From contig JAGBOC010000011.1 of assembly GCA_017634065.1 (NCBI GenBank), forward strand, positions 60,412-124,411: a DNA stretch of 64,000 bases, in the 5' to 3' direction. The notes under the pieces are model-generated. The model had not been told where the DNA came from, did no database searches, and worked only from the letters and a program-made list of their open reading frames with translations. The position numbers were made by a program, and so were the translations under genes. The stretch comes from Lachnospiraceae bacterium (GTDB lineage: Bacteria; Bacillota; Clostridia; Lachnospirales; Lachnospiraceae). Positions 4,221 to 64,000 of this stretch are shown here, piece after piece; within the stretch, counting starts at the first letter, position 1, and each line of letters starts with the position of its first letter.

Positions 4221-4250
4221 GTAGGGGTGAGCATTGCGAACCCGAAAGGA
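4221..4250 (+). repeat. Single GTAG-type element ending in CCCGAAAGGA just upstream of the tpiA start
   Basis: 'gtaggggtgagcattgcgaacccgaaagga' followed 6 nt later by ATG 4257. No other SD is visible. Confidence 0.85.
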
Positions 4251-18531: not shown

Positions 18532-18621
18532 GGAGATAGGAGGGTAGCTGGTGCGCCCCGCGGTCTTCAACACCGTTGTGAAAGTTAAACTTTCGGCTAG
18601 GTTCGATTCCTAGCGTCTCCG
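18532..18621 (+). tRNA. selC: tRNA-Sec (anticodon UCA)
   Basis: Anticodon stem-loop 'gcggt-CTTCAAC-accgt' with TCA at 18667-offset-free position 18567-18569. Long variable arm 'gaaagt-taa-actttc'. T-arm 'ctagg-ttcgatt-cctag'. Sits directly upstream of selA. No encoded CCA. Acceptor pairing is imperfect, so the ends are +/- 2 nt. Confidence 0.85.
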
Positions 18622-20151: not shown

Positions 20152-20256
20152 GTAGGGGTGAGCACTGCGAACCAGAGTGTAGATGTGAGCATTGCGAGTT
20201 AAATGTAGTGGTGAGCACTTTGAACCAATTGTAGGGGTGAGCACTGCGAACCCGAA
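20152..20256 (+). repeat. Four tandem GTAG-type units (periods 27, 26, 26 nt) filling the selA-selB spacer
   Basis: GTAG at 20152, 20179, 20205 and 20231. The outer units are intact 'gtaggggtgagcactgcgaacc', the inner two degenerate. Confidence 0.9.
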
Positions 20257-27868: not shown

Positions 27869-28169
27869 TGATACTCGTAGGGGCGAGCAATGCGAGCCCG
27901 AAAAAAAAACACCTAAGTATATTGACAAAGTAAATTACTACGAGGGAATCATTACCGAAGTTCACGACGGCTCTGTAGCACTTGATATAAAAGGTCGTCT
28001 TGGATCAATAAGGATTCCAAAAAGAATGATAATATCTGACTACGAATTGAAAGTAGGTCAAGAAGTAGCATTCAATATGAGCTTTATCGAACAACTAAGC
28101 GCTTCGGTTAATGAGCATTATATAAAAAAATCCTCTAAAACAAGAAGCGACAATGAAAATAACGAATAA
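27855..28169 (+). CDS. Small conserved protein between prdA and prdB; start uncertain
   Basis: Core 'YYEGIITEVHDGSVALDIKGRLGSIRIPKRMIISDYELKVGQEV'. The only in-frame ATGs (27834, 27855) overlap the prdA 3' end, so the repeat element would be translated. Confidence 0.55.
   Translation: MQTHNDTRRGEQCEPEKKTPKYIDKVNYYEGIITEVHDGSVALDIKGRLGSIRIPKRMIISDYELKVGQEVAFNMSFIEQLSASVNEHYIKKSSKTRSDNENNE
27877..27900 (+). repeat. Single GTAG-type element just after the prdA stop
   Basis: 'gtaggggcgagcaatgcgagcccg' followed by A9 (27901-27909). Confidence 0.85.
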
Positions 28170-44421: not shown

Positions 44422-47400
44422 ATGGTATTCAGAGTAAAAAAAGTTTTTGCAATTTTATTATGTATGACAATGGTGTTTTCAAGCACATTGCCACATTTTG
44501 CAAATGATGATTTAGCCATTGAGTTAGAGAACGTTGCGCAATCTGAAACTACTGTGTCAGAGACTGAATCTGATAGTGATAATTATGAGAATAATAATTT
44601 AGAAAGTGGCATAGAAGCAGAAAGTGATACAGAAGCAGAAAGTGGCACAGAGGCGGAAAGTGATACTGAAACAGAGAGTGATACTGAAACAGAAAGTGAC
44701 ACTGAAACAGAGAGCGATACTGAAACAGAAAGTGACACTGAAACAGAGAGTGACACCGAAACAAAAAGTGACACTGAAACAGAGAGTGGTTCAGTAACAG
44801 AAAGTGCCACGGAATCATCAACTGATCTTGAAGCAAGTTCTACAGGAGAGACTAATAATTCAGAAAAAACAATAGTTGATGAAGAAAAGATTGCTACAGA
44901 TAGTGAGATGGAGTTAAATGAGTCCCCATCTTATGATGAGATGAATGTAGCAACCTATAGTGAGATTATAGATGCTTTTGAAACTGAAAATGTAGCAACA
45001 GTTAGTGAGATTAATGCAGTTGATTATGAGATACAAGGTCTTGGTTTTATAAGGCCCGATTTTACAAGCCCAGTTGTTCAAGAGCTTCCATTAAGAAGAG
45101 GAATAAGACTTTTTGGCACATCAGATCCAGGTGCAAGTTATGACCCAAGAAGTGAGACATTATCATCTGGTCTTTCAAGATTACCAGCCGTTAGAAACCA
45201 GGGTGGTTTTGGAACTTGTTGGGCTTTCTCTACACTCGGAATGTTTGAGACATATTTAAGACTTCATAATTTAGTTAGTACAGAAGAAGATTCTAATTTG
45301 AGTGAAGCAGCTCTAACATATTTTATGCAATATGGACTTTATGAAAAAGAAGTAACTAAAAATGGATCAAGTAACATTGATAAGCCAGGTGTCGAAGGAT
45401 TTGATTATTCATATATTAATAATAGGTCAAGACTTGGACAAATTGGTGGAAATCAGGCAATGGGACTTTTAACTATGTCATCTTATATAGGTGCTGTAAA
45501 AGAAGATACTAACTCATCATATAATCGTATGAGTAATATTGCTGCAAATCCAAGTAGTCTTGATGGCAGTTATGCATTTAATAAAAACTCATTTGTCCTT
45601 AAAAATGCATTATTCCTAAATAAAACTAATCGAAATATGATTAAACAAGCTATACTTGATAATGGTTCGGTAGGTATATCATATTTTGCTGGTCGTGCGA
45701 CTCCTACTGATGGTGAAGACGAAGATGCAAGTTATGTCCATACTGCAAATGGGGAGTATTATTACTATACTGATAAGACGTCTGCTCAAGCAAATCATGC
45801 GATTCTAGTTGTAGGTTGGAATGATGATATTCCAAAAGAAAACTTTTATGTAGGCGGGAGTAATTACGCAGCAAGTTCTACAAAGGCAGCTTCCAATGGT
45901 GGATGGCTTTGCAGAAATAGCTGGGGTGGCTCTGGAAATGGAACAAATGGATATTTTTGGATGTCATATGAAGAACCAAGTTTAGATGATAATGTGTATA
46001 CTGTAGAGGCAATGTCTGCTGATACGTATGAATATAATTATCATTATGATACTACTGCATGTACTTCAGCTTATGCTCATAGTGTTGAAGATATGCCTAT
46101 GTATTATGCAAATATATTTAAGGTAAGTGATGACATAGATCAAAAACTTGATGCGGTTAGTGTAGCATTTAATAGTGCAGATGTAGAGTTTGATATTTTA
46201 GTATATACAAAGGACACTGCTATGACAAATCCTACAGATGGAGTAAAGAAGTTTGAGGAGTCATACACAAGACAGTCTGCTGGTATATATACCATTGAAC
46301 TTAGCAGCAGTGTTACTTTAAGAAAAGGTACTTATTTTTCTGTTATTTTCAAAGCAAAAAATACATCAACAAATTATGGAAGTATGAATAAAACTATATT
46401 TATGTTCTGTGATGAGAGTAGCACAGGAACATATAGTTTTGTAAATGCTGCATCAGCTGGACAAAGTTTCTATGGTTATGTTAGTGGTTCAAACTTCGTG
46501 TGGGATGATGTTAATAGTTCTGAACATCCTAATTGGCCATCTGGTTATGATTTAAATGTTTCCTCAAATGGCAAAGGTAGAAATTATAGAATTAAAGCAC
46601 TTACAAATGCTTATCCAACTGTCACAGTTTCATTTGCGGAAGATGCAGGAGCGGTGGCTACAAAGGAGCAGAGAGTTGGCATAGGTCTTGAGACTAAACT
46701 TGATGAAAATACATTCACAAAAACTGGATATAAGTTTAAGAGATGGAATGACGGAAGTGATACTTACTATAACGATTGTGCAAATATAACAACTGATATA
46801 GATATAACATTATATGCAGAGTGGGAGCCAATTACTTACAATATAACATATGATTTAGATGGTGGCACACTCCCATCAGAGGCTTTGAATCCTTTACCAA
46901 TGACTTATGATAGTCCAGTGACATTACCAACACCTACAAAAACTGGCTATGATTTTGATAACTGGTATAGTGATGAGACAACTGTCTACGATGGTACAGA
47001 TAATTTATCAACAACAGATGGCAGTTCAGTAACAATAAAAGCAAAGTGGAATGAGCATGAATATACTATAACTCTCCATGAAAATAATGGAACATATGCA
47101 AGTGATTACGATGTTCCTTCATCAAGATTATATACTGCATCATCAACACTTCCAACAAGTGCAAATATAACTAGAGTTGGATATACATTTGATGGTTGGT
47201 ATGAAAATGAAGAATTAACTGGGACGAGAGTCACAAGTATTTTAGCGCGGACAGCATCAAATAAAGAATATTGGCTTAAATGGAATGAAAACACGTATAC
47301 TATTACTTATAATGAAAATGGTGGATCATATGCAAGTGGATATACCACAAGACCTACATCAAGAACCTATACTGACACTGCTTCATTACCAAATGAAACT

Positions 47401-49389
47401 CAAATCTCAAAGACAGGTTATGATTTTGCTGGATGGTATGAGAGCTCAGATTATTCTGGCTCTGCCATTGACCATATTGGACCAAATGTTGCAGCTCATA
47501 AAGTTATTTATGCTAAGTGGAATGAGAAAACATACAGTGTAACTTATAAAGATTATGATGGAACAGCTCTTACATCTTCTAATTGGAAGCCTGGGTATAC
47601 AGCTCCTACAAGTAGAAGATATACTGAAAGTCTTGCACTACCAGGTGAGTTTAATGTTGTAAAGGCAAATCACTTCTTTTTAGGATGGTTTAAAGAAGGA
47701 GATACAACTGAACACATTGTCACAAGTATTGGCGCGAATGTAGCAGAAGATTTAATTTATAGGGCAAAATGGGATAGTGCTTGGACAGTGACATTTGATT
47801 ATCAAATAGGAAGTATAGCAAATGTAAATGAATTAGTCAGAAATGGATATAAAGTTGGGAAACCAAATGACCCAACATCTGCGAATAGAAGATTTGCTGG
47901 TTGGTATAAAACATATAATGCAAGTGCTGCAACTATAGATGAAAAGTATTTAGACCCATATGATTTTAATATAGAAACTGTGACAGAAGATATTACACTC
48001 TATGCGAAGTGGATAGAAGATGTAACTTATGAAGTGAGATTTAACTTGACAAGTGGAGATGTGCACCCAAGTACAAGTCAGGTGGAAGAAATACCAAGTG
48101 AGTTTGTTGTTGAAGGAAATAAGGCAACTGCACCTACTACTCCAGTTTCAAATGGATATGTATTTAGAGGTTGGTTTACAAGTGACACATTTACTACAGT
48201 ATATAACTTCAATACCACTATCACAGAGCAAACTACAATTTATGCTAAATGGGAATTAGTTACTAACTCGATAAGATATTATTTGAATAATGGATTATGG
48301 GCGACAAGTTATACTCCACCAACTGAATGGAATATAACAACAGAAAATACAGTGAACCTTCCAACAGGTACAAATATAACAAGAAATCATTATATTTTTA
48401 ACGGCTGGTACAGGACAAGTGATTTTTCAGGGAATCCTGTTTCATCACTAGTAGGAATAAACTCAAATATAAGTCTCTATGCAAAGTGGACTCTTGACAC
48501 TACTCTTGGAGATTATCATACTATTAACTTTGTAGCTAATGGTGGAAGTGGCACGATGGAAACTCAATATGCTCTTGAAGGCGAAGACACTCAACTTTAT
48601 GCTAATACATTTACAAGATCAGGTTATTCATTTAATAGATGGAGAACAACTGATAATAGATATTATGGAAATGCTACATTTATAGGAAATGTGACAGAAG
48701 ATTTAGTTTTGTACGCAGAATGGACTCAAAATGTTACACCTACTCCTACACCAAACCGCAGACGTACAGGTGGAGGTGGCGGTGGAGGTGGTGGAGGCGG
48801 AGGTGGCGGTGGAGGAGGTGGTGGTATACCAGCAGGAAATCTTCCAACGACACTACCAAATGGTACTCCTCTTATGCAAAGCACTGAACCAGTTACTACT
48901 GTCACTGCTTCAGGTGTAGCAGAAACTGTGTCAGTAGATGCTACAACTGGTGTGTCAACTTTGACAGTAAGTATTAGTTTTACAAACACAGCAGTAGTAA
49001 ACGACACAAGTAATTCAAACTGGGTAGCAGATGCAACTGGAAAATGGCATTTGCAAGTTACAAATACACTTGGACAGGCTATTGAACCAATAGATACTTG
49101 GGCTTGTATAAACTCAAATGTAGTAAATAATCTCGGTCAGACGCAGGTAGTTTCTGATTTCTATTTCTTTAATGGAAAAGGAGAAATGGTAACTGGATGG
49201 TTAAGTGATGCCACTGGTAAAACATATTTCTTGGAAACATCTGCCACAAGTGAACAGGGTAAGATGTCAAGGGGATGGAAGGAAATTTCTGGAAAGTATT
49301 ATTTCTTTAATAATGATGGAACATTGATGAAGGGTGGAGTAACGCCTGATGGTTATGTTGTAGATGCAAATGGCATTTGGCAAAATTAA
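44422..49389 (+). CDS. Giant secreted surface protein: acidic repeats, C1 (papain-like) cysteine peptidase, ~10 Listeria-Bacteroides (Flg_new) repeats, poly-Gly, cell-wall-binding repeats
   Basis: Signal peptide. 'QGGFGTCWAFS' (Cys codon 45217-45219), 'NHAILVVGWND', 'NSWG'. Repeated 'TGY.F.GWY......I.....I....LYAKW' units. G19 (48769-48825). C-terminal 'GW......YFF..DG.M..G' repeats. Confidence 0.85.
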   Translation: MVFRVKKVFAILLCMTMVFSSTLPHFANDDLAIELENVAQSETTVSETESDSDNYENNNLESGIEAESDTEAESGTEAESDTETESDTETESDTETESDTETESDTETESDTETKSDTETESGSVTESATESSTDLEASSTGETNNSEKTIVDEEKIATDSEMELNESPSYDEMNVATYSEIIDAFETENVATVSEINAVDYEIQGLGFIRPDFTSPVVQELPLRRGIRLFGTSDPGASYDPRSETLSSGLSRLPAVRNQGGFGTCWAFSTLGMFETYLRLHNLVSTEEDSNLSEAALTYFMQYGLYEKEVTKNGSSNIDKPGVEGFDYSYINNRSRLGQIGGNQAMGLLTMSSYIGAVKEDTNSSYNRMSNIAANPSSLDGSYAFNKNSFVLKNALFLNKTNRNMIKQAILDNGSVGISYFAGRATPTDGEDEDASYVHTANGEYYYYTDKTSAQANHAILVVGWNDDIPKENFYVGGSNYAASSTKAASNGGWLCRNSWGGSGNGTNGYFWMSYEEPSLDDNVYTVEAMSADTYEYNYHYDTTACTSAYAHSVEDMPMYYANIFKVSDDIDQKLDAVSVAFNSADVEFDILVYTKDTAMTNPTDGVKKFEESYTRQSAGIYTIELSSSVTLRKGTYFSVIFKAKNTSTNYGSMNKTIFMFCDESSTGTYSFVNAASAGQSFYGYVSGSNFVWDDVNSSEHPNWPSGYDLNVSSNGKGRNYRIKALTNAYPTVTVSFAEDAGAVATKEQRVGIGLETKLDENTFTKTGYKFKRWNDGSDTYYNDCANITTDIDITLYAEWEPITYNITYDLDGGTLPSEALNPLPMTYDSPVTLPTPTKTGYDFDNWYSDETTVYDGTDNLSTTDGSSVTIKAKWNEHEYTITLHENNGTYASDYDVPSSRLYTASSTLPTSANITRVGYTFDGWYENEELTGTRVTSILARTASNKEYWLKWNENTYTITYNENGGSYASGYTTRPTSRTYTDTASLPNETQISKTGYDFAGWYESSDYSGSAIDHIGPNVAAHKVIYAKWNEKTYSVTYKDYDGTALTSSNWKPGYTAPTSRRYTESLALPGEFNVVKANHFFLGWFKEGDTTEHIVTSIGANVAEDLIYRAKWDSAWTVTFDYQIGSIANVNELVRNGYKVGKPNDPTSANRRFAGWYKTYNASAATIDEKYLDPYDFNIETVTEDITLYAKWIEDVTYEVRFNLTSGDVHPSTSQVEEIPSEFVVEGNKATAPTTPVSNGYVFRGWFTSDTFTTVYNFNTTITEQTTIYAKWELVTNSIRYYLNNGLWATSYTPPTEWNITTENTVNLPTGTNITRNHYIFNGWYRTSDFSGNPVSSLVGINSNISLYAKWTLDTTLGDYHTINFVANGGSGTMETQYALEGEDTQLYANTFTRSGYSFNRWRTTDNRYYGNATFIGNVTEDLVLYAEWTQNVTPTPTPNRRRTGGGGGGGGGGGGGGGGGGGIPAGNLPTTLPNGTPLMQSTEPVTTVTASGVAETVSVDATTGVSTLTVSISFTNTAVVNDTSNSNWVADATGKWHLQVTNTLGQAIEPIDTWACINSNVVNNLGQTQVVSDFYFFNGKGEMVTGWLSDATGKTYFLETSATSEQGKMSRGWKEISGKYYFFNNDGTLMKGGVTPDGYVVDANGIWQN
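44605..44787 (+). repeat. Tandem 18-nt coding repeats (ESDTET)n
   Basis: 'gaaacagagagtgatact'-type units encoding 'ESDTETESDTET...' (aa 62-122). Confidence 0.9.
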
Positions 49390-49440: not shown

Positions 49441-50013
49441 ATGAAAAGAAAACAAAAAAGATTCATAGTTATCACATGTTTATTTCTAGCATCTATTATA
49501 AATACCTTATATGCAAGTGAGATAATAGATAAGAAAGGTAGAATCGTTGAAGAGATTATAAAACCTACTGCAGAAAAAGTAATTGATGAAAACACTATTT
49601 CAGATGCGATTAGGAGAGTGCCTAATTTATCAGCTGATTACAATGGGGATACTTCAAATAAATACGCTGGACCGAGTAAAAACATTTTCTCTGAACATAC
49701 CTTATATTCTGAAAAAGAAAATGCAAATGATAGGGAATGGACACTCATACGACACACTCCATCTATAACTGATCTTTCTGAAGAAAAGTATATCTTAAAT
49801 GAAGATGATGCAAATGACAGAATAAGGATTATGCTTATTACTCCAAATGGGATGATAGAAGGGAAAGATGGATTTTTCAAGATAGAGGATAAGATATATT
49901 ATTTTGATGAAAAAGGGCTGATGGTTTTAGGACCTTGTTATGATACTATTGGAAATTATTATTTTTTCTCATATGATACAGGGGAATTAATTGAAGAAGT
50001 AAAAGTGAGATAA
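49441..50013 (+). CDS. Secreted protein with C-terminal cell-wall-binding repeats
   Basis: Signal peptide 'FIVITCLFLASIINTLYA'. C-terminal 'GFFKIEDKIYYFDEKGLMV.G......NYYFFS.DTGEL'. Confidence 0.6.
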   Translation: MKRKQKRFIVITCLFLASIINTLYASEIIDKKGRIVEEIIKPTAEKVIDENTISDAIRRVPNLSADYNGDTSNKYAGPSKNIFSEHTLYSEKENANDREWTLIRHTPSITDLSEEKYILNEDDANDRIRIMLITPNGMIEGKDGFFKIEDKIYYFDEKGLMVLGPCYDTIGNYYFFSYDTGELIEEVKVR

Positions 50014-54441: not shown

Positions 54442-54506
54442 AAAAACACCTCAAAAAACGAATTATAACATAACATTTAATTATATATTATAGATGAATA
54501 TTTAGC

Positions 54507-54638
54507 AACCCCCTATGCCAACCCCCTAACTTTCATAACTTGTAGGTGGTTGGTACTGGGGAGGTGAGCATTGCGAACCCGAGTTGTAGGGAAGGAACTT
54601 TACTAGCACGTAAAAAATAGGTCGTTAGATATGGATAT
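54507..54638 (+). repeat. Conserved 5' cassette (copy A): C-rich/G-rich long hairpin plus partial GTAG-type element upstream of a secreted-paralogue gene
   Basis: 'aaccccctatgccaaccccctaac...cttgtaggtggttggtactggggaggtgagcattgcgaaccc...aaataggtcgt'. Re-occurs at 60733-60999. Confidence 0.8.
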
Positions 54639-56093
54639 ATGAGAAAGAGCACAAAAATGGTGAAAAAGCTACTGGCTTTATTTTTAGTTGTGCTCATAAG
54701 TATAGAGAGTTTTGGGGCGGTGGTTTCTGACAATGATGGGTCAGCCTTCATAACAAAGGCAGAGTTTGATAGTTTGAAAAATGAGTTTCAGAGTCAACTT
54801 GATAATTATAATACAACAATAGATGCTAAATTAGATGAGGCGATATCATCATACCTAGCAGGTATCAAAGTGAAAAACTCTCTGGAATTAGAAAGTATTA
54901 TTAATAAAATCAATGGGAGTACTAAATACGATAAAGGCTGGTTCCCTATGTGCAAAACATTTAGTCCCATTACAACAAAAAAGCCCGTTAATGGACAACT
55001 TGCTTTAAATGTAGTGGGTAATGGCGGTGGTGGAGGGGCAGCGAACAATGGGTGGAGAAGTAGTTTTAGTTTTAGTTTGAATTTAAATCATAGTAATGCA
55101 CTTGTTCGTGATACATTATATTACATTGACATTCCATCAACAAAAACTGATGGTGTTTATTATGTATATAAAAAGAATAGGAATGGTAATTTTAAAATGT
55201 ATGATGGTAAATATGTAACCATGAGTTATAAAGAATTGTTTACAGGTGTGCAATTTGGATATGGTAAAATTTGGAATTTCACTGGTTCAGTAATCCCTAC
55301 TTGGACAGTTGGCGTGATGGCGAATTCAAGTTCAATATGGACACCAATGTCAACAACAGTGAATTATACAATAATGAACTGGAATGACGCTGGGACTGAA
55401 ATAGCAACACCATATGATAGAGCTGTCACTTGTCTGTGGGTGCCATCATTTGATGCAACTGATGTAAGTCAAGTTTGGCCAGTTATGGGTTCTTGCGATA
55501 GCTCTGCTAATCTTATAGCTTTAGATACTGAAAACTACACTACCATGACATTGAGCAATACTAAATCAACATTTAAAAGCGGTTTTAAAGGTCTTGCTTT
55601 TACACATTTAAATGGTGCAGATAAAACTAACACAACGAACAATGGAGCACTTGGTAGTGATTTCGAATTTTATTATAATTATCATCCATATGAAGAAATT
55701 GCAATGTCAGATTTAGCTATTACGGAAATAGCAGATGTATTAGATAATAAAAAGTTTCCATTTTATAGTGGACTACCAATTTGCAAAATTGCAGATGATG
55801 GAATTGTTACAATTGAATTAGAGTTTCATAGTGAAAGTGGTAATGACATAAAATATGCAATACGAGCTGATGCATTTCAAAATGATGCAAGTTATGTTAG
55901 TGATACAGCATTAAACATTAGAAAAATGGATGAAACTCCAATTACAAGTTATGAGATAAGTAATAATTCAACTTTAAAACTCAAATTAAATGTAAAAAAA
56001 GGGACAGTGCTGTGGATTAAAACGTGCGATGCAAATAGTGACACTGGATATACAGGAGTTAAAACAATTTCAATAAGTGAAGAGTTTACATAA
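54639..56093 (+). CDS. Secreted paralogue family protein, type A, copy 1
   Basis: Signal peptide then conserved mature N-terminus 'VVSDNDGSAFITKAEFDSLKNEFQSQLDNYN..ID.K.D.AISSYLAGIKV'. Alternative start at ATG 54657. Confidence 0.75.
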   Translation: MRKSTKMVKKLLALFLVVLISIESFGAVVSDNDGSAFITKAEFDSLKNEFQSQLDNYNTTIDAKLDEAISSYLAGIKVKNSLELESIINKINGSTKYDKGWFPMCKTFSPITTKKPVNGQLALNVVGNGGGGGAANNGWRSSFSFSLNLNHSNALVRDTLYYIDIPSTKTDGVYYVYKKNRNGNFKMYDGKYVTMSYKELFTGVQFGYGKIWNFTGSVIPTWTVGVMANSSSIWTPMSTTVNYTIMNWNDAGTEIATPYDRAVTCLWVPSFDATDVSQVWPVMGSCDSSANLIALDTENYTTMTLSNTKSTFKSGFKGLAFTHLNGADKTNTTNNGALGSDFEFYYNYHPYEEIAMSDLAITEIADVLDNKKFPFYSGLPICKIADDGIVTIELEFHSESGNDIKYAIRADAFQNDASYVSDTALNIRKMDETPITSYEISNNSTLKLKLNVKKGTVLWIKTCDANSDTGYTGVKTISISEEFT

Positions 56094-56112
56094 GGAAAGG
56101 GAAATACCAGAT

Positions 56113-57555
56113 ATGAGATTTAAAATACAAACAAAAATTAATGTTTTTGCCTTGACATTTGTTGTGATGAGTTTTGTATGTCGTGCTGCTATTGTAAGTG
56201 ATAATGATGGTACTGCATTTGTTACGAAGACGGAATTTGAGGCATTGAAAAGTGATTTTAATGCACAGATTGATAATTATAATCGTAGCATTGATAATAA
56301 AATTGATGGTGCGATAGCATCATATTTGGCAGGAATAAAAGTTTCAAGGCTTGTTGAAATAGAGAGCTTACTTAATAAAGTTAATAGTCAAACTGCATAT
56401 ACTAGAGGCTGGTTTCCGATGTGTAAAACATATAGTTTTAGTTCAACTAACAAACCAGTTAATGGTCAGTTAGCTATGCAAATATTACAAACAATAGGAA
56501 TGGGAAGAAAAAAAGATGGTTGGGCCGGGCATCAGATTTATAGTTTAAATATAGATAGTTCTGATGGATTAGTTCGAGACACATTAGTATATGTTGATAA
56601 ACCTGGTGCGCGTACAAATGGAAGGTATTATTGTATAGAACAGTCAAACGATAAAACATTTAATATTTATCAAGGAAGTTATTTAAATGTTTTATATAAG
56701 GAAACATTAGTTGGAGTATCATTTGGCTATACAGTTAATATTGGTGTTTCAGGTGATGCTACATCAACATGGGCAGTAGACACATTAAAAAATGAAAGTG
56801 GCAAATGGATCCCATTGTCAACAACTGTTGATAATGTACTGTCAATGGCTTGGGACCCTAGTGGAAGAACAACATTATTAAGACAAGTGCCATCTTATTT
56901 TATACCTTCTTATGAACTCACCAGTACAAATCAAATATGGCCGATAATGGGGCAATGCCCAACCACAAATGATACAATCTGCTTATATTTGGATAAGTTC
57001 TCTGTATCAACACCAAGTGAAGCATTGTCAACTATGGTATGTGGATATAAAGGTCATATAAATGCAACTCAAAATAATACTGTAAAATATTTTGATGCAA
57101 AGAATGGTGCGTCTGCTACATCTCTTAATTGGTATTATAATTATCACCCACTAGAGTCAATAGCTGTATCAGATATCGCTGTGAAGGAAGTATCAAGTGT
57201 AATGTCAAATAAAAAATATGAGTTTTACTGTGGACTACCAATATGTAACATAGCTAATAATGGGACATTAACACTTGAACTTAAATTTCATAGTGAATCT
57301 GGCAATAAAATACACTATGCTATTAAATCATCAACTTTTAAAAATGATTCTACATATACTAATGACACATCACTTAATTTAAGAATGAGTGATGATACTG
57401 CTATCACTAGCCAAGAAGTAGATGATGGCACTACATTGAAATTAAAATGTGATGTAAAAAAAGATACAACACTTTGGATTAAGGCTTATGATGCTAGTGA
57501 TAATGAGAAGTATGTTGGTGTAGAAACTATTTCAATTATAGAAGAAACAGACTAG
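56113..57555 (+). CDS. Secreted paralogue family protein, type A, copy 2
   Basis: RBS 'aaggaaaggg'. 'IVSDNDGTAFVTKTEFEALKSDFNAQIDNYN'. C-terminus colinear with copy 1 ('YYNYHP.E.IA.SD', 'GLPIC.IA..G', 'FHSESGN'). Confidence 0.8.
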   Translation: MRFKIQTKINVFALTFVVMSFVCRAAIVSDNDGTAFVTKTEFEALKSDFNAQIDNYNRSIDNKIDGAIASYLAGIKVSRLVEIESLLNKVNSQTAYTRGWFPMCKTYSFSSTNKPVNGQLAMQILQTIGMGRKKDGWAGHQIYSLNIDSSDGLVRDTLVYVDKPGARTNGRYYCIEQSNDKTFNIYQGSYLNVLYKETLVGVSFGYTVNIGVSGDATSTWAVDTLKNESGKWIPLSTTVDNVLSMAWDPSGRTTLLRQVPSYFIPSYELTSTNQIWPIMGQCPTTNDTICLYLDKFSVSTPSEALSTMVCGYKGHINATQNNTVKYFDAKNGASATSLNWYYNYHPLESIAVSDIAVKEVSSVMSNKKYEFYCGLPICNIANNGTLTLELKFHSESGNKIHYAIKSSTFKNDSTYTNDTSLNLRMSDDTAITSQEVDDGTTLKLKCDVKKDTTLWIKAYDASDNEKYVGVETISIIEETD

Positions 57556-57621
57556 TCGAAGTATATTATTGGCATAACACTTATCATAGCATAACTAATA
57601 AGTTATGCTGTAAGGACTTAA

Positions 57622-57648
57622 AAGGGGGATTTCATCTCCCCCTTTTTT
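57622..57648 (+). terminator. Rho-independent terminator
   Basis: 'aaggggga...tctccccctt' followed by T6. Confidence 0.75.
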
Positions 57649-57704
57649 ATGGTATAATAAAATGCAGTTGTAATACATTTATTTTGGAAAGGAGTGAGAT
57701 TTTT

Positions 57705-58919
57705 ATGGGTAGTGAGAAGTATGAAAAACATTTTTTGCTAAATACTGAGACCGCGAAAGAATATGCGACTGAATACCTTAAGTATTTTGATGATAAAACA
57801 AGTATTGAGTGTGTTGAGATAGGTGATGGTAATATAAATTATGTATTTAAAGTTTATGATAAAAAAACTGGCAAGTCAGTTATCATAAAGCAAGCGGACA
57901 AACTCCTAAGATCATCAGGGAGACCGCTTGATTTGCATCGCAATAAAATAGAGGCTGAAATACTTAAAATTCAGAAATCACTTGCACCAAAATATATTCC
58001 TGAAATATATAATTATAATGAGAAAATGTATGCTCTTGCGATGGAAGATATATCTGAATATAAAAATCTGCGAAAGGAACTAATGGCAGGAAAAATATTT
58101 GAAAAGTTTGCTGATGATATAACTACATTTATGGCGGATACCTTGCTTCCTACAACAGACCTTGTTCTTGATAGAGCAAAAAAGAAAGAGTATGTAAAAC
58201 TTTTTATCAATATTGATTTATGCGATATCACTGAAGACTTAGTTTTGACAGAGCCATATTATAATTATAAAAATAGAAATATTATTATAAATGAAAATCA
58301 AAAATTTGTTGAGGACAATATTTATAATGATAGTGAATTACATTATTATGTAGATATACTTAGAAATAACTTTATGAATAATGCTGAAGCATTGCTCCAC
58401 GGAGACTTACATTCTGGTTCTATATTTATAAATGATGTAGGAATAAAAGTAATTGATCCAGAATTTGCATTTTATGGTCCTATGGGATATGATATAGGGA
58501 ATGTCATAGGAAATCTTGTATTTTCATATGCATATAAATATTTCACAGATTGCAATGATAAAAAGTTTTTAGATTATATACTTCGCACTATAAGAGACGT
58601 AATTGATAAGACTTATGTGAAACTGAATAAAAAATATGATGAAATTGTAGAATTTAAATTATATAAAAATGAAAAGTATAAATGCAAATACATACGTGAC
58701 ATCATGGCTGATTCATTTGGATATGCAGGAACTGAAATCATCCGAAGGACAGTCGGTGATAGTAAGGTGGCGGAGTTAAATAGCATAACTGATATTAATA
58801 TAAAAGTTCCACTTGAAAGAAGTTTGATATTGGTTGGAAAATATTTGATAAAAAATATGTTGACATTAAGTGATGGTACTAGTGTGGCAAGTGTGATAAA
58901 AGAAAACATGTATTATTGA
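57705..58919 (+). CDS. mtnK: 5-methylthioribose kinase
   Basis: 'EIGDGNINYVFKV', 'LLHGDLHSGSIF', 'IDPEFAFYGPMGYD'. ATG 57705 after 'aaaggag'. Confidence 0.88.
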   Translation: MGSEKYEKHFLLNTETAKEYATEYLKYFDDKTSIECVEIGDGNINYVFKVYDKKTGKSVIIKQADKLLRSSGRPLDLHRNKIEAEILKIQKSLAPKYIPEIYNYNEKMYALAMEDISEYKNLRKELMAGKIFEKFADDITTFMADTLLPTTDLVLDRAKKKEYVKLFINIDLCDITEDLVLTEPYYNYKNRNIIINENQKFVEDNIYNDSELHYYVDILRNNFMNNAEALLHGDLHSGSIFINDVGIKVIDPEFAFYGPMGYDIGNVIGNLVFSYAYKYFTDCNDKKFLDYILRTIRDVIDKTYVKLNKKYDEIVEFKLYKNEKYKCKYIRDIMADSFGYAGTEIIRRTVGDSKVAELNSITDINIKVPLERSLILVGKYLIKNMLTLSDGTSVASVIKENMYY

Positions 58920-58932
58920 TGTGGAGAACATT

Positions 58933-59985
58933 ATGGAAAGATATGATCAAGATTTGGCATTTATTTTAAGATATGAAAATGTAGCATGGTATGAGAATGG
59001 TAAAGTTCGCATACTTGATAGGAGAATATATCCTACTGAGATTAAATTTGTGGAATGCAGCACATATAAAGAAGTGGCAAAAGCTATAAGTGATATGGTC
59101 ACTCAAAGTGCTGGACCATATACGGCTGCAGGTATGGGTATGGCACTTGCTGGATATGAAGCAAGAGAAAAATCTGAAAAAGAGCAAATAGATTTTTTAA
59201 AAACTGCAAGTTATGAAATATCTCATGCAAGACCAACGACTGCAAATAGAATGACGCAGATTACAGAAGGATGTCTTAAAGCTATGATGGAAGCACTAAA
59301 AAATGGAAAGGAAACTTCTGAAGCTGCATTTGAAGAAACTATCAAGTCTTTAAATAGAAGATATAGCATAATGGAAAAAGTTGGAGAAAATCTGGCAAAA
59401 CTTTTTCCGAAAGGTGGGCGTATATTAACACAGTGCTTTGGTGAAACTATCATAGGGATGATGCTTCGTGCTGCAAGAAAATATAATAATGATGTAAAAA
59501 TATATTGTGCAGAAACTAGACCATACTTACAAGGCGCAAGACTTACTTCAAGTTGTTGTTATGACATGGGCTTTGATACAACTGTTATAACGGACAATAT
59601 GGTTGCGTATGCGATGGAAACTAAAAAAATAGATTTATTTACATCGGCTGCTGATACAATAGCACGTGATGGACATATTGCCAATAAAATAGGTACATAC
59701 CAGATAGCGATCTTAGCAAAATATTTTAAGATACCATATTATGTGACAGGTATACCAGATAAGGATAAACACACTAAAGATGATATCGTGATTGAAGAAC
59801 GAGATCCAAAACAAGTTTTAAGTTATAGAGACATCCCAAATACTTTAAATGGTGTGAAGGCAATATATCCTTCATTCGATATAACACCTCCGCACCTTAT
59901 AAGCGGCGTTGTGACAGACAAAGGTGTATATGTTCCTTATACACTAAATGATTATTTTACAGATGAGGTGGAAAGGTTTTATTAA
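58933..59985 (+). CDS. mtnA: S-methyl-5-thioribose-1-phosphate isomerase (eIF-2B alpha/beta/delta family)
   Basis: 'ARPTTANR', 'CAETRPYLQGARLT', 'GHIANKIGTY', 'FDITP'. Adjacent to mtnK. Confidence 0.85.
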   Translation: MERYDQDLAFILRYENVAWYENGKVRILDRRIYPTEIKFVECSTYKEVAKAISDMVTQSAGPYTAAGMGMALAGYEAREKSEKEQIDFLKTASYEISHARPTTANRMTQITEGCLKAMMEALKNGKETSEAAFEETIKSLNRRYSIMEKVGENLAKLFPKGGRILTQCFGETIIGMMLRAARKYNNDVKIYCAETRPYLQGARLTSSCCYDMGFDTTVITDNMVAYAMETKKIDLFTSAADTIARDGHIANKIGTYQIAILAKYFKIPYYVTGIPDKDKHTKDDIVIEERDPKQVLSYRDIPNTLNGVKAIYPSFDITPPHLISGVVTDKGVYVPYTLNDYFTDEVERFY

Positions 59986-60053
59986 GAAAATGTTGACAAG
60001 GATGATGTAGTGTGTTTACTTTGGTGAGAAAAGATAAAAAGGGCAGAGGAGCA

Positions 60054-60536
60054 TTATATCATCCAAATAGGAACGATAGTGTTTTCCTTATCAACTGGGA
60101 CAATTTTGTCTTTCATACATAGGAGGCAACCATTGCCTCTTTTTCTTGTTGATTTATCAAGTAATTTAAAACTATTAGTCATTCTATCATGTGGAATGGT
60201 TGTTTTTTTAATCTCTATTGGATGCAGTTGGTTGTCATAATCAATGATTAAATCTATCTCATTTTTTTCTGTATCTCTATAATAATAAAAAAGTTCTTCT
60301 AATAAATTGTTGTGGTAAGTCATTCGTATTTCATTTATGACATAATTTTCTAAGATGGCACCATTTATAGTATCATTCATTAGTATTTGACTTGAACTAT
60401 ATTTGAGTAAGTATGTTATTATACCAGTGTCGAAAAAGTACATTTTTTTATTTTTAATGATCCTTTTGAGTAAATTATTTGAAAATGAATGTTTGTATAT
60501 AGGAAGAATAATATTCATTTCTATTTTTGATTTCAT
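60054..60536 (-). pseudogene. C-terminal remnant of a DUF4143 AAA ATPase (N-terminal ATPase half missing)
   Basis: 'KMYFFDTGI..YL', 'NEIDLIIDYDNQLHPIEIKK' match the C-terminal half of the 11016..12314 protein type. No Walker motifs, only 160 aa. Confidence 0.65.
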
Positions 60537-60732
60537 CTAATTCTGTTTTAAATTTATTATTATATGTTTTAAAAATTTCATTTTGCGACAGTGGGTTCAT
60601 GTGAATTATAGCTACTCGACCTGCAAGAGTATTCTTTTGCCAAGTTTAATATGCTATTTTCTATTTGTCTTTTGATATACATAAAAGCCCCTTTTTTTCA
60701 TGATGAAAATACGATTACATCTTATTTTAATA

Positions 60733-60999
60733 CAACCCCCTATGTCAACCCCCAATCTTTTGCAACTTGTAGGTGGTTGGTACTGGGGAGGTGCGTTCGC
60801 CGTAGGGGCGAGCACCGCGAGCCCGAACGTAGGTAGATGTTGTACTTGCGAACGTATTTTGTGAGCTTAGTACAACACTATGCCAGATTTCCGTGAAGAT
60901 GCGAAGCATCTGAACGCTTTTCGGAAATCGGCTGGTGAGCACGCGCCGTAGGGGTGAGCATTGCGAACCCTAACTAAATAGGTCGTAAAATACATATTT
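60733..60999 (+). repeat. Conserved 5' cassette (copy B), expanded by extra GTAG-type units and a ~110-nt nested-hairpin insert
   Basis: Same flanks as 54507-54638. GTAG units at 60802, 60829 and 60948. Hairpins at 60839-60876 and 60886-60929 (inner 60897-60911). Confidence 0.8.
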
Positions 61000-62580
61000 A
61001 TGAAAAAGAGCACAAAAATAATGAAAAAGCTACTAGCTTTATTTTTAGTTGTGCTCATGAGTATAGATGGGTTTGCTGCGGTAGTATCTGATAATGATGG
61101 CTCGGCGTTTATCACTAAGGCGGAGTATGATAGTTTGAAGAATAACTTTCAGAGTCAACTTGATAAATATAATTCTTCCATTGATAATAGAATTGATTAT
61201 ACTATAGCATCTTACTTAGCTGGGTTAATAATAAATCAAGATCCAGATAATCTTTGGCAAAAAATAGAAGACATTACAAATAGTTCAATTAGGTTTTTGA
61301 ATGGTTACCCAGGAACAGGCGTGGAAGATTGTCGCACTGAAACAACATTAAATATAACAAGACAATACAATATAAAAAGAAATAGATTTTATTATGGTTT
61401 TGTTGGCCGTAACGTTACAGCAGCTGGAGACTCAAATTCGATAGGGTTTAAATTTCAAATTTGTTATAGCTCGGACACTGGCGTCTCTTGGGACTATTCA
61501 ATCCTGTCAAATCTTGTGAACGCTGTTAACGGAACCCTAGTTGGTCGTACTGGCTGGGATGCGGATTTTGGATATAAGCTTGCTGAAACGAGTAGTGTAT
61601 CAGAAAATGGATCTGCAAGTGCAGTGACTAATATACAAGATGGTAATGGTTGTGTCTGGTTATATGAGGAACTTCCTAGCGGGCATAAACAATTACGGAG
61701 TTATAATTTGAAATTTTACCCGGTTCAGAATATGAATGTCAGTGGGCATTCTTATAAGGATTGGTATACAACGAACAAAAATGATTTTAAGACAAGATAT
61801 ACAACTGCAAGTGGATTAGACATAACTTCTAGTATAGCTAATTTGAGTTTTACTATGCCAGAAGGTACAAAACCTGGATTTTACTCTGATTACAGCGAAC
61901 GGAGATCAAGAACATCAACGACAAATGGAACCTGGGGTGATATGACATTATCAATTGTGAAAGAAAATGATGGGATAGATTATACATCAATACAATTTGG
62001 GAATATTCCTACAGATGGTAAGATTTGGTGCCTTGATGAGCAGGAAAACTTTGTATTATCAACACTTAAAACAGTAACTGGAAATCCAGTGCTTGTAGCT
62101 GAAGAATACCCAAGCCCTTCTGGTCCAGCTTCAAGAAATGTTAGTTATAATGCAGTAACAACTAAATACTATCAAGTATCATATAAACCAAGAAATGAAT
62201 ACATTAATTCTTTTTCTAATCAGTATTTATCATCAGTCGCTGGAGAACAAGTTTTTTTAGGAGGAGGGGCGCCGCTTTTTAAAACCTTCGGTTCGGATGA
62301 AAAGATTAAATGTAAAATTAAATTTCATTTAGAAAATGAAACTGGAGCAGCAACTAGTGGAGATGTAATATATTCAATATCAAATAAACAATTCATAAAT
62401 GGTTTATCAACAGGTAGTTCATATACTCCAATTAATAATCAAAGTGTGACAGTTGAATCAAGTGGTACAGAAGTAGAGTTTACAATAGATTCAGATAACC
62501 CACAAACTTGGTGGATAAATATGTATCCAGTAAATGACGGAAACAGAGTATACATAACAAATAGTTCATTTAAGATTTAA
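61000..62580 (+). CDS. Secreted paralogue family protein, type B, copy 1
   Basis: 'MKKSTKIMKKLLALFLVVLMSIDGFAAVVSDNDGSAFITKAEYDSLKNNFQSQLDKYN'. The first ~60 codons are nearly identical at DNA level to 54639-. Confidence 0.75.
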   Translation: MKKSTKIMKKLLALFLVVLMSIDGFAAVVSDNDGSAFITKAEYDSLKNNFQSQLDKYNSSIDNRIDYTIASYLAGLIINQDPDNLWQKIEDITNSSIRFLNGYPGTGVEDCRTETTLNITRQYNIKRNRFYYGFVGRNVTAAGDSNSIGFKFQICYSSDTGVSWDYSILSNLVNAVNGTLVGRTGWDADFGYKLAETSSVSENGSASAVTNIQDGNGCVWLYEELPSGHKQLRSYNLKFYPVQNMNVSGHSYKDWYTTNKNDFKTRYTTASGLDITSSIANLSFTMPEGTKPGFYSDYSERRSRTSTTNGTWGDMTLSIVKENDGIDYTSIQFGNIPTDGKIWCLDEQENFVLSTLKTVTGNPVLVAEEYPSPSGPASRNVSYNAVTTKYYQVSYKPRNEYINSFSNQYLSSVAGEQVFLGGGAPLFKTFGSDEKIKCKIKFHLENETGAATSGDVIYSISNKQFINGLSTGSSYTPINNQSVTVESSGTEVEFTIDSDNPQTWWINMYPVNDGNRVYITNSSFKI

Positions 62581-62601
62581 TAATATAATGGAGAAATGTT
62601 A

Positions 62602-64000
62602 ATGAATAAATTTCGTAAAAAAATTGGAGTTATATCTATTAATATGTTTTTAATAATATGCTCCACATTTGGCACTTATTCTGCGATAGTATCGGATAAT
62701 GATGGTTCAGCATTTGTTACAAAGGTTGAATTTGAAACTTTAAAGAAAAACTTTGCAAACCAAATTGATAATTACAAGTCAAGTTTAGAAAATAAAATTG
62801 ATGGTGCTATAGCATCTTATTTAGCCGGAATTAAAGTGGATGCGGAACCGGAAAACTTATGGGATAAAGTATTAGAAGAAACTGGTGGCAATATGGCATT
62901 TAGAAATTCACTGGAAAGCATTGGAAGAGATATAATAGAAACTGATATTAAAATTAATATATCAAGAAGTTATAAAAGAAAATTAAATAATTATTATATG
63001 GGTTGTGTTGCGAGAGCATCTGTGGTAAATGGCATTAAATTTAATGTTACATATTCATCAGATATATCTAAAATAGGTGATGAAACATTGATGTATTCTC
63101 TCACCGAAGGTTCTAATTGTACATTTAATAGTGTTACTAGTTGGGATCAAAAACCTTGGTACAAGCTTAGCAGTTCAACAAGCAAAACAGAAACAAAACA
63201 AGTTGGTGATACTATAAATGTCAGTGATGGGGAAGGAAATGTATGGCTCTATGAAATATTACCTAGTGGTGAAAAAACAATTAGATCATATCAGAAGACA
63301 TATTATCCAACTCAAGTTTTAAATGTGTATGGGCACTCATATAAAGACTGGTTTACTACCAATAGTAGTACTTGGTTGACAAGATATACTACTGCAAGTG
63401 GAGTAAATGATACAACAGCATTATCTTTTACAATGCCTACATTAGACAAAGTAGGTAGAGTAGAAGACATAACAAATCAAAAAAGTAGTGATGCTGAAAC
63501 ATCGGGAACCTGGGGGAATATGACTATATCATATACATCGATTCCGTCTACTGAAAGTTACCAGACAGCCCAATTTGGTATACTACCATATACTAATATA
63601 TATGCAGTAAATGAAAGAGCAAATTTAAATCTTTCGGCGATAGTTACTCAATCAGCAGAAAAGCTATATGTTTCTGAACAATATCCTCAGCCTAAAGGTT
63701 CAACAGAGAGGAAGGTTGAATATTCAGGTATAAGTGTGAAGTATCACCAAGTGAATTTGACACCAGAGTTTCTACCTCTGAATAGATTTGTAAATAAATA
63801 TCTTACTGGAATTGCAGGAGAAAATGTATATTATGGTGGAGGTTCGCCTTTATTTGAGACATTTGATTCGGACCAAAAAATAAGATGCAGGATAAAATTT
63901 AAGGTACAAGATGAAAATGGAAATGCTGTTAGCGATAATATAACATATTCTATTTCTGATAAACAATTTGTGAATGGAAATAAAGTTGCTGATGCTACTT
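62602..64000 (+). CDS. Secreted paralogue family protein, type B, copy 2 (3' end outside window; not in ORF track)
   Basis: My own translation from ATG 62602: 'MNKFRKKIGVISINMFLIICSTFGTYSAIVSDNDGSAFVTKVEFETLKKNFANQIDNYKSSLENKIDGAIASYLAGIKV...'. Open to base 64000. Colinear with 61000-62580 ('NVWLYE.LPSG', 'GHSYKDW', 'RYTTASG'). Confidence 0.8.
   Translation, partial: MNKFRKKIGVISINMFLIICSTFGTYSAIVSDNDGSAFVTKVEFETLKKNFANQIDNYKSSLENKIDGAIASYLAGIKVDAEPENLWDKVLEETGGNMAFRNSLESIGRDIIETDIKINISRSYKRKLNNYYMGCVARASVVNGIKFNVTYSSDISKIGDETLMYSLTEGSNCTFNSVTSWDQKPWYKLSSSTSKTETKQVGDTINVSDGEGNVWLYEILPSGEKTIRSYQKTYYPTQVLNVYGHSYKDWFTTNSSTWLTRYTTASGVNDTTALSFTMPTLDKVGRVEDITNQKSSDAETSGTWGNMTISYTSIPSTESYQTAQFGILPYTNIYAVNERANLNLSAIVTQSAEKLYVSEQYPQPKGSTERKVEYSGISVKYHQVNLTPEFLPLNRFVNKYLTGIAGENVYYGGGSPLFETFDSDQKIRCRIKFKVQDENGNAVSDNITYSISDKQFVNGNKVADAT

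Follow-up and report, generated by a model that had tools for sequence, protein, structure and literature searches.

Modular multigene families of surface and secreted proteins are known as a general kind, and several described systems resemble in part the family reported here. In the dockerin–cohesin system of cellulosomes, a short conserved docking tag is carried by dozens of otherwise unrelated secreted proteins per genome. The sapA paralogues of Campylobacter fetus share a conserved 5' non-coding and N-terminal coding part with a divergent remainder, and the conserved Sap N-terminus is the part that binds the cell surface. The vsp/vlp/vsa genes of Mycoplasma and the vmp genes of Borrelia combine a conserved 5' untranslated region (UTR) and signal-peptide coding sequence with divergent mature parts, the conserved 5' end being a recombination substrate. 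Staphylococcal leukocidins of the lukS/lukF type consist of two adjacent, co-transcribed paralogous secreted subunits with their own signal peptides and believed joint action. Siphophage receptor-binding proteins (RBPs) connect a constant N-terminal attachment part through a helical neck to an exchangeable β head ending in a jelly-roll, while the YSIRK-G/S and KxYKxGKxW classes carry conserved, family-specific signal-peptide sequences. The family under study was found in a 64,000-nt stretch (hereafter the window) of contig JAGBOC010000011.1, positions 60,412–124,411 of the forward strand, from Lachnospiraceae bacterium assembly GCA_017634065.1. Four window genes in two tandem pairs, A1/A2 and B1/B2, encode proteins in which a signal peptide is followed by a near-invariant 52-residue module, termed the handle, and by a body that differs between the pairs. 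The handle exists in two flavours, α and β, whose obligate pairing is the new feature of the family, and the first gene of each pair opens with a conserved 5' cassette comprising an upstream element, a leader and a characteristic signal-peptide sequence (SP1 or SP2). Our preferred interpretation, to which we give about an even chance, is a repertoire of secreted, probably surface-displayed oligomeric proteins in which one docking and oligomerisation handle carries many heads.

In its presumptive function the family would be most like the docking-tag systems, namely dockerin–cohesin and the shoulders of phage RBPs, and in its genetics it appears closest to the families with a conserved 5' UTR and signal-peptide sequence, namely the Mycoplasma and Borrelia variable lipoproteins and C. 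fetus sap. It departs, however, from every one of the compared systems in its defining features. The likeness to cellulosomes extends to the plant-fibre-degrading habitat of the organism and to the handle tip DNDGSAFITKAEFDSLK, which by eye is loosely like one dockerin F-hand (DxNxDGxIxxxD..LK). Unlike a dockerin, the handle is N-terminal and starts at the signal-peptide cleavage site, and it holds at most one DxDG-type loop plus one 35-residue helix in place of two tandem Ca-binding F-hand repeats of ~22 residues. Dockerin_1 (PF00404) gives no Pfam match at E ≤ 1 in the four proteins, and no cohesin-like gene is seen in the inspected flanks of the family loci and the contig. Additionally, the bodies lack recognisable catalytic domains, and the handle flavours are tied to gene pairs. 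The sapA-like arrangement of conserved 5' non-coding and N-terminal coding sequence with divergent remainders was tested and is found here, but Sap proteins leave the cell by type I secretion without a signal peptide, whereas the family is entirely Sec-type with an A-x-A site. Moreover, sap genes are clustered and served by one promoter on an invertible segment, while the family loci are dispersed, each with its own element on the gene strand, and the conserved coding part of the family is held by protein-level selection rather than DNA homogenisation. In contrast to the variable lipoproteins, the family has no lipobox Cys, no silent 5'-less cassettes (in the window and locus L084) and no tandem-repeat bodies, and instead possesses a 52-aa (amino acid) conserved mature module with obligate α+β pairing. 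It differs from leukocidins in lacking a leukocidin or aerolysin-type fold and any Pfam or NCBIfam match, with Foldseek hemolysin matches at a probability of 0.02–0.05 and a template-modelling score (TM) below 0.1, as well as in a pairing marked by an N-terminal helical module and in the predominance of unpaired members. Siphophage RBPs are set apart by context, the family being non-phage, Sec-secreted and without relatives in PHROGs, INPHARED or IMG/VR. Finally, the YSIRK-G/S and KxYKxGKxW signal peptides have other motifs, and SP1 and SP2 go with first-cistron position and are conserved at synonymous sites of their codons.

Homology searches reveal at least 935 related proteins with A1 as query and at least 759 with B1. 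Most of these relatives match only the N-terminal 14–20% of the query, at 60–85% identity, and are proteins of 400–650 aa without a Pfam domain, annotated as 'hypothetical protein' in Lachnospiraceae metagenome-assembled genomes (MAGs). A profile of the module recovers 1012 clusters at 50% identity among 1.84e9 representatives, 828 of them at E ≤ 1e-10, with the match always N-terminal at residues ~8–80. Across 185,579 species genomes (one per species) the module occurs 112 times. Copy counts and loci were taken from the best 80 of these 112 occurrences and are lower bounds; all 80 lie in eight rumen MAGs (RUG816, RUG14839, RGIG3219, RGIG9190, RGIG6119, UBA3633, UBA3866 and SRR10912540_bin.12), with at least 32, 24, 23, 17 and 14 copies in the five best-sampled genomes and at least 2–6 in the other three. 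Many occurrences are situated at contig ends; since assemblies break at the conserved cassette, family genes are under-reported in MAGs of the clade. The failure of the initial annotation to recognise the family is borne out by every library searched: scans of the proteins against Pfam (E ≤ 1), NCBIfam and PHROGs give nothing significant, a sequence search of the PDB with the module profile yields sub-threshold matches only (best E 0.41, mainly coiled-coil proteins), and a full-text literature search for the motif and descriptive terms retrieves no paper on the family. No relative is present in 50,697 phage genomes (tblastn), 72,556 plasmids or IMG/VR, which rules out an origin from such mobile elements. 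Judged from these searches, the proteins appear to constitute a previously undescribed multigene family of a narrow clade of uncultured rumen Lachnospiraceae. A profile model is warranted for the family, whose members are now annotated as unrelated 'hypothetical proteins'.

The handle consists of the tip VVSDNDGSAF(I/V)TK followed by an amphipathic helix of ~35 residues. Most of its positions are more than 90% invariant among 186 proteins, and a six-frame motif search together with tblastn locates exactly four copies in the 64 kb. All four window proteins display the predicted order of signal peptide and near-invariant mature N-terminus: a basic n-region, a hydrophobic core and a c-region with an A-x-A site are directly followed by the module, (V/I)VSDNDG(S/T)AF(I/V)TK...SYLAG. 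The cleavage region reads S(F/L)(G/A)A | (V/I)VSDNDG and contains no conserved Cys. Third-codon-position identity of the module in 125 genes is only 0.51 within and 0.47 between genomes, at a protein identity of ~80%. The combination of saturated synonymous sites and a conserved protein shows that very strong purifying selection at the protein level keeps the handle; the same saturation rules out concerted evolution or DNA homogenisation of the module, so that the earlier proposal of gene conversion behind the conserved mature N-terminus falls away. Hydrophobic residues occupy positions 16/19/23, 27/30/34, 38/41/45 and 49, an 11-residue recurrence, and the hydrophobic periodicity peaks at 3.67–3.75 residues rather than 3.5. 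A straight amphipathic helix of hendecad type would show such a pattern. A shared, fixed module of this kind looks like a docking or oligomerisation device, consistent with the docking or polymerisation role first suggested for the N-terminus.

Analysis of the modules reveals a strict pairing rule. Unsupervised 2-means clustering of the 125 complete modules among 127 family genes separates 89 α modules (consensus VVSDNDGSAFITKAEFDSLKNnFQSQiD...) from 36 β modules (iVSDNDGSAFVTKaEFEALK.dFa.Qi.NYN...). Every one of the 31 tandem pairs is heterotypic, in either gene order (15 and 16 cases; permutation p < 1e-5), and all 27 complete genes clearly without a family neighbour are α. Both partners share the same body type in 30 of the 31 pairs, at 28–73% identity. 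Both window pairs follow the rule, as does a third pair, C1/C2, beyond the window end. It also holds in independent metagenome loci classified with a scoring matrix trained on the first set, where 8/9 pairs are heterotypic and 12/13 singletons are α. The gene pairs had been described as tandem duplicates; they are indeed two adjacent paralogues of one body type, but not simple duplicates, since they form obligate α+β pairs conserved across species. A single position distinguishes paired from unpaired α modules: of the single alphas, 22/27 have Gly at position 40 (KID-x-AI), whereas 29/31 paired alphas have another residue there (p 3e-9), E in A1, Y in B1 and S in C1; the β consensus again reads Gly (KIDGAIA). 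Such a small/larger pattern next to a core position fits steric complementarity of directly packed helices. Because Gly and non-Gly at position 40 alternate as in two complementary packed helices, we infer that pairs may form hetero-oligomers and singletons homo-oligomers.

Beyond the handle, the bodies are divergent yet not wholly unrelated. A1 and A2 are 45–47% identical and B1 and B2 41–43%, whereas identity between types A and B is 23–28% and driven by the N-terminus. The initial annotation regarded the two body types as unrelated, and this stands for the middle ~270–300 aa (hhalign E 0.45) but not for the C-terminal ~115 aa, which are homologous (probability 99.3%, E 1e-20). An all-versus-all BLAST of 118 bodies resolves 35 unlinked groups, most of them present in several genomes; since such groups recur across genomes, the body types appear to be old orthologous lineages common to several species. 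AlphaFold2 models of A1 and B1 (predicted local distance difference test, pLDDT, 85 and 82.6) adopt the same layout, with a signal-peptide helix, a low-confidence tip (residues 23–36), a helix at 40–75 and an all-β body containing several strands of at least 20 residues. Foldseek relates the C-terminal ~110 aa to CBM4/6/22 and TNF/C1q jelly-rolls at a probability of 0.8–1.0. The C-termini end in a β strand, without an LPXTG motif or a transmembrane segment. Each protein is built from three parts: a constant helical handle, a hypervariable middle of at least 35 types, and a C-terminal jelly-roll that has diverged but remains homologous.

In the interpretation we prefer, the Sec signal peptide would export each protein, and the handle would act as an oligomerisation and docking device in its α and β flavours. 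Paired α and β chains of the same body type would assemble through their helices into a hetero-oligomer, while singleton alphas, a sub-flavour with Gly at module position 40, would form homo-oligomers. Most likely, the invariant tip attaches the whole assembly to a single conserved partner at the surface, a wall polymer or an anchor protein, and the cell would in this way present a range of different binding heads. The data establish how the family is distributed and built, its α/β pairing, the mode of selection, the leader element and the recombinant 5' mosaics; handle-mediated oligomerisation, docking at the surface and binding of ligands are what we infer from them. The first cistron of every locus carries the cassette, in which a ~60-nt cis element precedes a variable-length leader and the SP1 or SP2 coding sequence, and which follows operon position rather than α/β identity. 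Diversity would arise from many old body lineages and from body replacement at fixed loci, not from programmed switching.

Several observations weigh against this interpretation. No candidate partner protein has been identified, and Pfam gives no LPXTG, SLH, CWB2, LysM or choline-binding match in the four proteins, the sole anchor trace being a non-significant Choline_bind_3 match in A2 (E 0.084). A periodicity of 3.6–3.75 over 38 residues does not separate a hendecad coiled coil from packing of the helix against its own body. The CBM-like similarity is local and weak, with a TM of 0.3–0.45 relative to the target, and Foldseek searches of the PDB with both models and of BFVD with the A1 model yield only noise for the whole chain (TM < 0.2). 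Strict pairing could also reflect a chaperone–client relation or sequential function rather than a stable complex. Furthermore, first cistrons lack a normal (GGAG-type) Shine-Dalgarno sequence, which leaves their translation start and expression level uncertain.

A stronger version of this interpretation, which we regard as doubtful, is a new Gram-positive 'plug-and-display' system in which the α/β handle and tip mount at least 35 unrelated heads on one surface socket, with a dedicated expression cassette that coordinates the loci or makes their expression mutually exclusive. If true, it would be a functional analogue of cohesin–dockerin or phage baseplate–RBP docking that evolved independently. 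Rumen Lachnospiraceae are abundant and fibre-associated, and to our knowledge almost nothing has been described of their surface biology. With dozens of genes per genome in one clade and a total of ~1000 sequence clusters, the family probably influences how these cells adhere to plant material, to other microbes or to the host, or how they escape phages and protozoa. The pairing rule and the Gly/non-Gly complementarity at position 40 provide a sharp hypothesis of heteromeric assembly, and the 52-residue handle might find use as a natural, orthogonal tag for heterodimerisation or display.

The main rival explanation, which we consider unlikely, assigns the proteins to an extracellular polymer (a fibre, a pilus-like appendage or an S-layer-like array) whose subunits polymerise through their conserved ends. 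For example, each subunit could take up the invariant, disordered N-terminal tip of its neighbour in its C-terminal jelly-roll and display the variable middle, as in flagellins, pilins or endospore appendages. Both termini are conserved around a hypervariable middle, no wall-anchor domain is present, and the tip (23–36) is invariant yet of low confidence in the monomer models, which is typical of segments that gain order only on assembly. As S-layer mRNAs suggest, the long family-specific leader is compatible with highly expressed structural genes. A common groove for the tip should nevertheless be better conserved than the C-terminal domain, which is ~25% identical between types against more than 90% for the tip. 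Dozens of unrelated bodies per genome would be unusual for a single polymer, and the loci inspected contain no sortase, pilus ATPase or usher-like genes.

Upstream of the first genes, the family possesses a distinctive 5' element. The two window copies (Table 1) share a 61-nt block of 90% identity, including an exact 30-mer that occurs twice where shuffles expect 0. The claim that the same DNA precedes the first gene of each pair holds for this block; the similarity is not continuous, however, as B1 carries a ~146-nt insertion missing from A1. Specifically, in copy 1 box A CAACCCCCTATGC and box B CAACCCCCTAAC constitute a 13-nt direct repeat, after which come a T-rich spacer and the boxes C (GTAGGTGG) and D (TTGGTACTGGGGAGG); across the family, the element before first genes comprises the boxes ACCCCCTAT (13-nt direct repeat), a T-rich spacer and a near-invariant TTGGT(A/C)CTGGGGA. 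The heptamer CCCCCTA occurs only 3 times in the 64 kb, always inside the two leaders, and AGGTCGTA is conserved 13–16 nt before the ATG of first genes. An nhmmer profile recovers 65 element copies in the window and the other loci, 65/65 on the gene strand and none inverted; at the other loci, 57/59 copies have a family gene downstream, the median distance being 90 nt.

The element is conserved as primary sequence. RNAalifold on 47 copies gives no consensus structure, and the hairpin of the window's element copy is 73% paired across copies, with a covariation no higher than in shuffles (58–61 of 500 reach it); we therefore make no claim of a structured RNA. Rfam 15 has no match at the gathering threshold in the window except a tRNA-Sec, and both leaders return only noise at E ≤ 10. 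A sigma-70 scan detects no convincing plus-strand promoter in either intergenic region, and by-eye comparison of the leaders with sigma-54, ECF and sporulation-sigma consensus sequences is equally unconvincing. The element may be an operator, an unusual promoter or a protein-binding RNA. At one locus of MAG SRR10912540_bin.12, an IS3-family element with orfA and orfB transposase genes (L007 648–2923) sits inside box D of a leader and places 2.2 kb between the 5' element and its gene.

The variable middle of the leaders is largely a dispersed 23-nt repeat that is not family-specific. The GC-rich repeats of the B1 leader were considered as part of the cassette and rejected, being copies of this genome-wide repeat, which also lies in unrelated intergenic DNA and in leuS. 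Its copies (GTAGGGGYGAGCnnnGCGARCCC) are located at 463–587, 4221–4243, 20152–20253 and 27877–27899 as well as at the two B1 leader sites, always on the plus (coding) strand and mostly directly after stop codons or intergenic. An array of the repeat lies in frame in the leucyl-tRNA synthetase gene (open reading frame, ORF, 10–2310), encoding VGASKAVGASKTVGASTASP...VGASTASP before the editing domain. The A1 leader holds a single degenerate copy (54558–54580). Between the two B1 copies lies a hairpin-rich insert of ~120 nt (60825–60947), missing from the A1 leader, ~97% identical to the insert of the C1 leader (L001 20322–20440) and ~80% identical to the leaders of family genes in another species (L012, L017 and L049). 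The folding z-score of the whole B1 leader is −3.75, and the insert may be a small mobile or regulatory RNA element.

The signal-peptide coding sequence forms the third component of the cassette. First cistrons, α and β alike, use two conserved signal peptides, SP1 (MRKSTRIVKRLLALFLVVLMSIESFGA) and SP2 (MT+SRLKMCKKALCLIFAFLFSIESFAA), and 57/58 occurrences of these two lie in first cistrons, whereas second cistrons have idiosyncratic signal peptides, save one SP1 case. Because SP1 and SP2 track first-cistron position irrespective of flavour, the cassette belongs to the 5' end of the operon. Third-position identity of SP1 codons is 0.80 within and 0.64 between genomes, compared with 0.56 and 0.48 for the adjacent module. 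This conservation well above the neighbouring sequence suggests that the signal-peptide coding sequence is also constrained as nucleic acid, in the mRNA or the DNA. SP1 codons 3–20 (54645–54700 and 61006–61061) may fold into an mRNA hairpin, GAGCACAA...TTGTGCTC, whose inner stem is built from different codons in other genomes (AATAGT/ACTATT versus AAAGC/GCTTT). The family-specific signal peptides hint at a particular export route or site, while the 5' element and the synonymous-site conservation together point to an undescribed layer of control.

Comparison of loci reveals a mosaic 5' region. A1 and C1 are identical over 98/98 nt from −76 to +22, yet the 5' elements of A1, B1 and C1 differ by 15–17% despite near-identical leader stretches. 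The cassette recombines among loci, given the A1/C1 identity, the ~97% identical B1/C1 insert and this divergence of the elements. Between the ATG and +222, 191/240 nt (80%) of A1 and B1 are identical, but past ~+225 (codon 75, after SYLAG) the two are essentially unalignable, in agreement with the initial annotation, which had placed the identity of the 5' coding region far above that of the bodies. In RGIG3219, the sbcD–asnS flank aligns at 80% up to a point inside the 5' element, and the pair behind this asnS-side break has a C-like body type, not type A. Gene conversion or cassette exchange, as originally proposed, is supported by these footprints in the leader and signal-peptide codons and by the different body at a syntenic site, but does not extend to the mature N-terminus.

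A system of programmed antigenic or phase variation, in which the 5' cassette is an expression site or recombination anchor and bodies are exchanged or switched on and off at high frequency, is rather improbable. It would account for the mosaic leaders (A1 = C1 over 98 nt and B1 ~ C1 over 150 nt), the closer SP codons within than between genomes, the body replacement at asnS in a related species with its break inside the 5' element, and the frequent ends of contigs at the cassette. Runs of 9–10 C or G, in or beside the leader boxes of L074 (~2870), L069 (~2700) and L030 (~5480), are likewise in its favour and may be slipped-strand phase-variation sites or assembly artefacts; the window leaders, however, contain C5 and G4 runs only. 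Against it, every copy found is a complete gene with its own signal peptide, the first genes have their own leader element, and tblastn with six bodies finds only six complete genes in the window and L084 (~76 kb of genome), without body-only or silent 5'-less cassettes. The uniform orientation of the 65 elements gives no hint of an invertible segment bounded by the element. Strain-level variation was judged from the four assemblies carrying the locus, in which neighbours and gene order are identical, and an exact-pattern scan of metagenome contigs at the asnS-side junction found nothing. In addition, the saturated synonymous sites of the module speak against ongoing homogenisation, and the body types are old orthologous lineages in several species. 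The variable, cassette-switching character first proposed for these genes is accordingly not borne out.

A role as secreted two-component toxins or antagonistic effectors, like the bi-component leukocidins and with a body diversity driven by an arms race with competitors or protozoa, is very unlikely. The tandem co-transcribed pairs of paralogous secreted proteins and their long-stranded all-β bodies suit such a role, and the weak top Foldseek matches include CDTb, Cry toxins and hemolysins, but these toxin matches (TM 0.06–0.14, probability 0.02–0.3) are noise. Pfam and NCBIfam return no toxin family, the loci have no linked small genes of the immunity type, β-pore-forming toxins are not known to have such an ultra-conserved N-terminal helix, and most family members are singletons. 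Derivation from phage or tailocin RBPs in prophage remnants, with a conserved N-terminus docking onto a baseplate and variable heads, is effectively refuted, since the shared layout of constant N-terminus, helical neck, variable β head and terminal jelly-roll and the weak BFVD matches to BppU and tail-fibre proteins (TM ≤ 0.15) are set against Sec signal peptides, housekeeping flanks (asnS, sbcCD, mtnK/mtnA) with no phage genes nearby, and the empty searches of PHROGs, phage genomes and IMG/VR.

The four secreted-protein genes lie on the plus strand at the starts first assigned to them, as the ORF list, the translations and the parent contig agree (Table 1). Their quoted body motifs are also found, except that B1 reads CVWLYEELPSG, so that the N of NVWLYE is present in B2 only. 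Second genes start 19–21 nt after first genes (19 nt between A1 and A2). Each pair looks like a two-gene operon on account of this spacing, of the GGAG-type ribosome-binding sites of A2 and B2, and of the terminator-like hairpin after A2.

Table 1. Coordinates of the family genes, their 5' regions and adjoining features, in window positions.
Feature	Position	Strand	Details
5' element, copy 1	54506–54566	+	Family-specific, ~60 nt
A1 leader, remainder	54567–54638	+	AGGTCGT at 54619–54625, 13 nt before ATG
A1	54639–56093	+	484 aa, α-type, opens pair A; SP1 signal peptide 54639–54719, constant module 54720–54875, variable middle ~54876–55685, C-terminal jelly-roll ~55686–56090
A2	56113–57555	+	480 aa, β-type partner of A1, same body type; idiosyncratic signal peptide 56113–56190, module 56191–56346; Shine-Dalgarno GGAAAGGG
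Terminator-like hairpin and T run (intrinsic type)	57624–57640	+	Closes A1–A2 operon
DUF4143 fragment	60054–60536	-	C-terminal part of AAA_14/DUF4143 ATPase, Pfam E 1.4e-27; divergent, upstream of pair B
5' element, copy 2	60733–60793	+	Family-specific
B1 leader	60794–60999	+	Dispersed-repeat copies 60802–60824 and 60948–60970 flanking insert; AGGTCGT at 60980–60986
B1	61000–62580	+	526 aa, α-type, opens pair B; SP1 signal peptide 61000–61080, module 61081–61236, variable middle, C-terminal jelly-roll ~62185–62577
B2	62602–64000 (cut by window end)	+	β-type partner of B1, 518 aa whole on parent contig L001; signal peptide 62602–62685, module 62686–62841; Shine-Dalgarno GGAGAA

The third pair, C1/C2, lies ~1.2 kb past the window end on the parent contig, with the same cassette and a third body type, its two members being 50% identical to each other. 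Between B2 and C1 runs a hicAB toxin–antitoxin pair on the minus strand. These hicA/hicB genes (L001 19601–20195) and a relB gene (L084 11401–11679) occur between and after the family pairs beyond the window, and their proximity suggests that the region has the character of a variable island. The flanks otherwise consist of ordinary chromosomal genes, namely sbcCD-like, asnS, methylthioribose-kinase-like and MTR-1-P-isomerase-like (mtnK/mtnA) genes. Full-length AAA_14+DUF4143 genes adjoin or separate family pairs elsewhere (L081 5418–6680; L082 2450–3763 and 7042–8244; L083).

Elsewhere in the window, the selenocysteine tRNA gene noted above is positioned at 18532–18620. A secreted protein of 1655 aa (44422–49389) combines Listeria-Bacteroides repeats, a lectin-like domain, a papain-like peptidase domain and a choline-binding repeat, and a neighbouring protein of 190 aa (49441–50013) has a sub-threshold choline-binding-repeat match (22 bits against a cut-off of 27). 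From the choline-binding repeats of these two proteins it follows that the organism uses choline-binding-type wall anchoring for other surface proteins.

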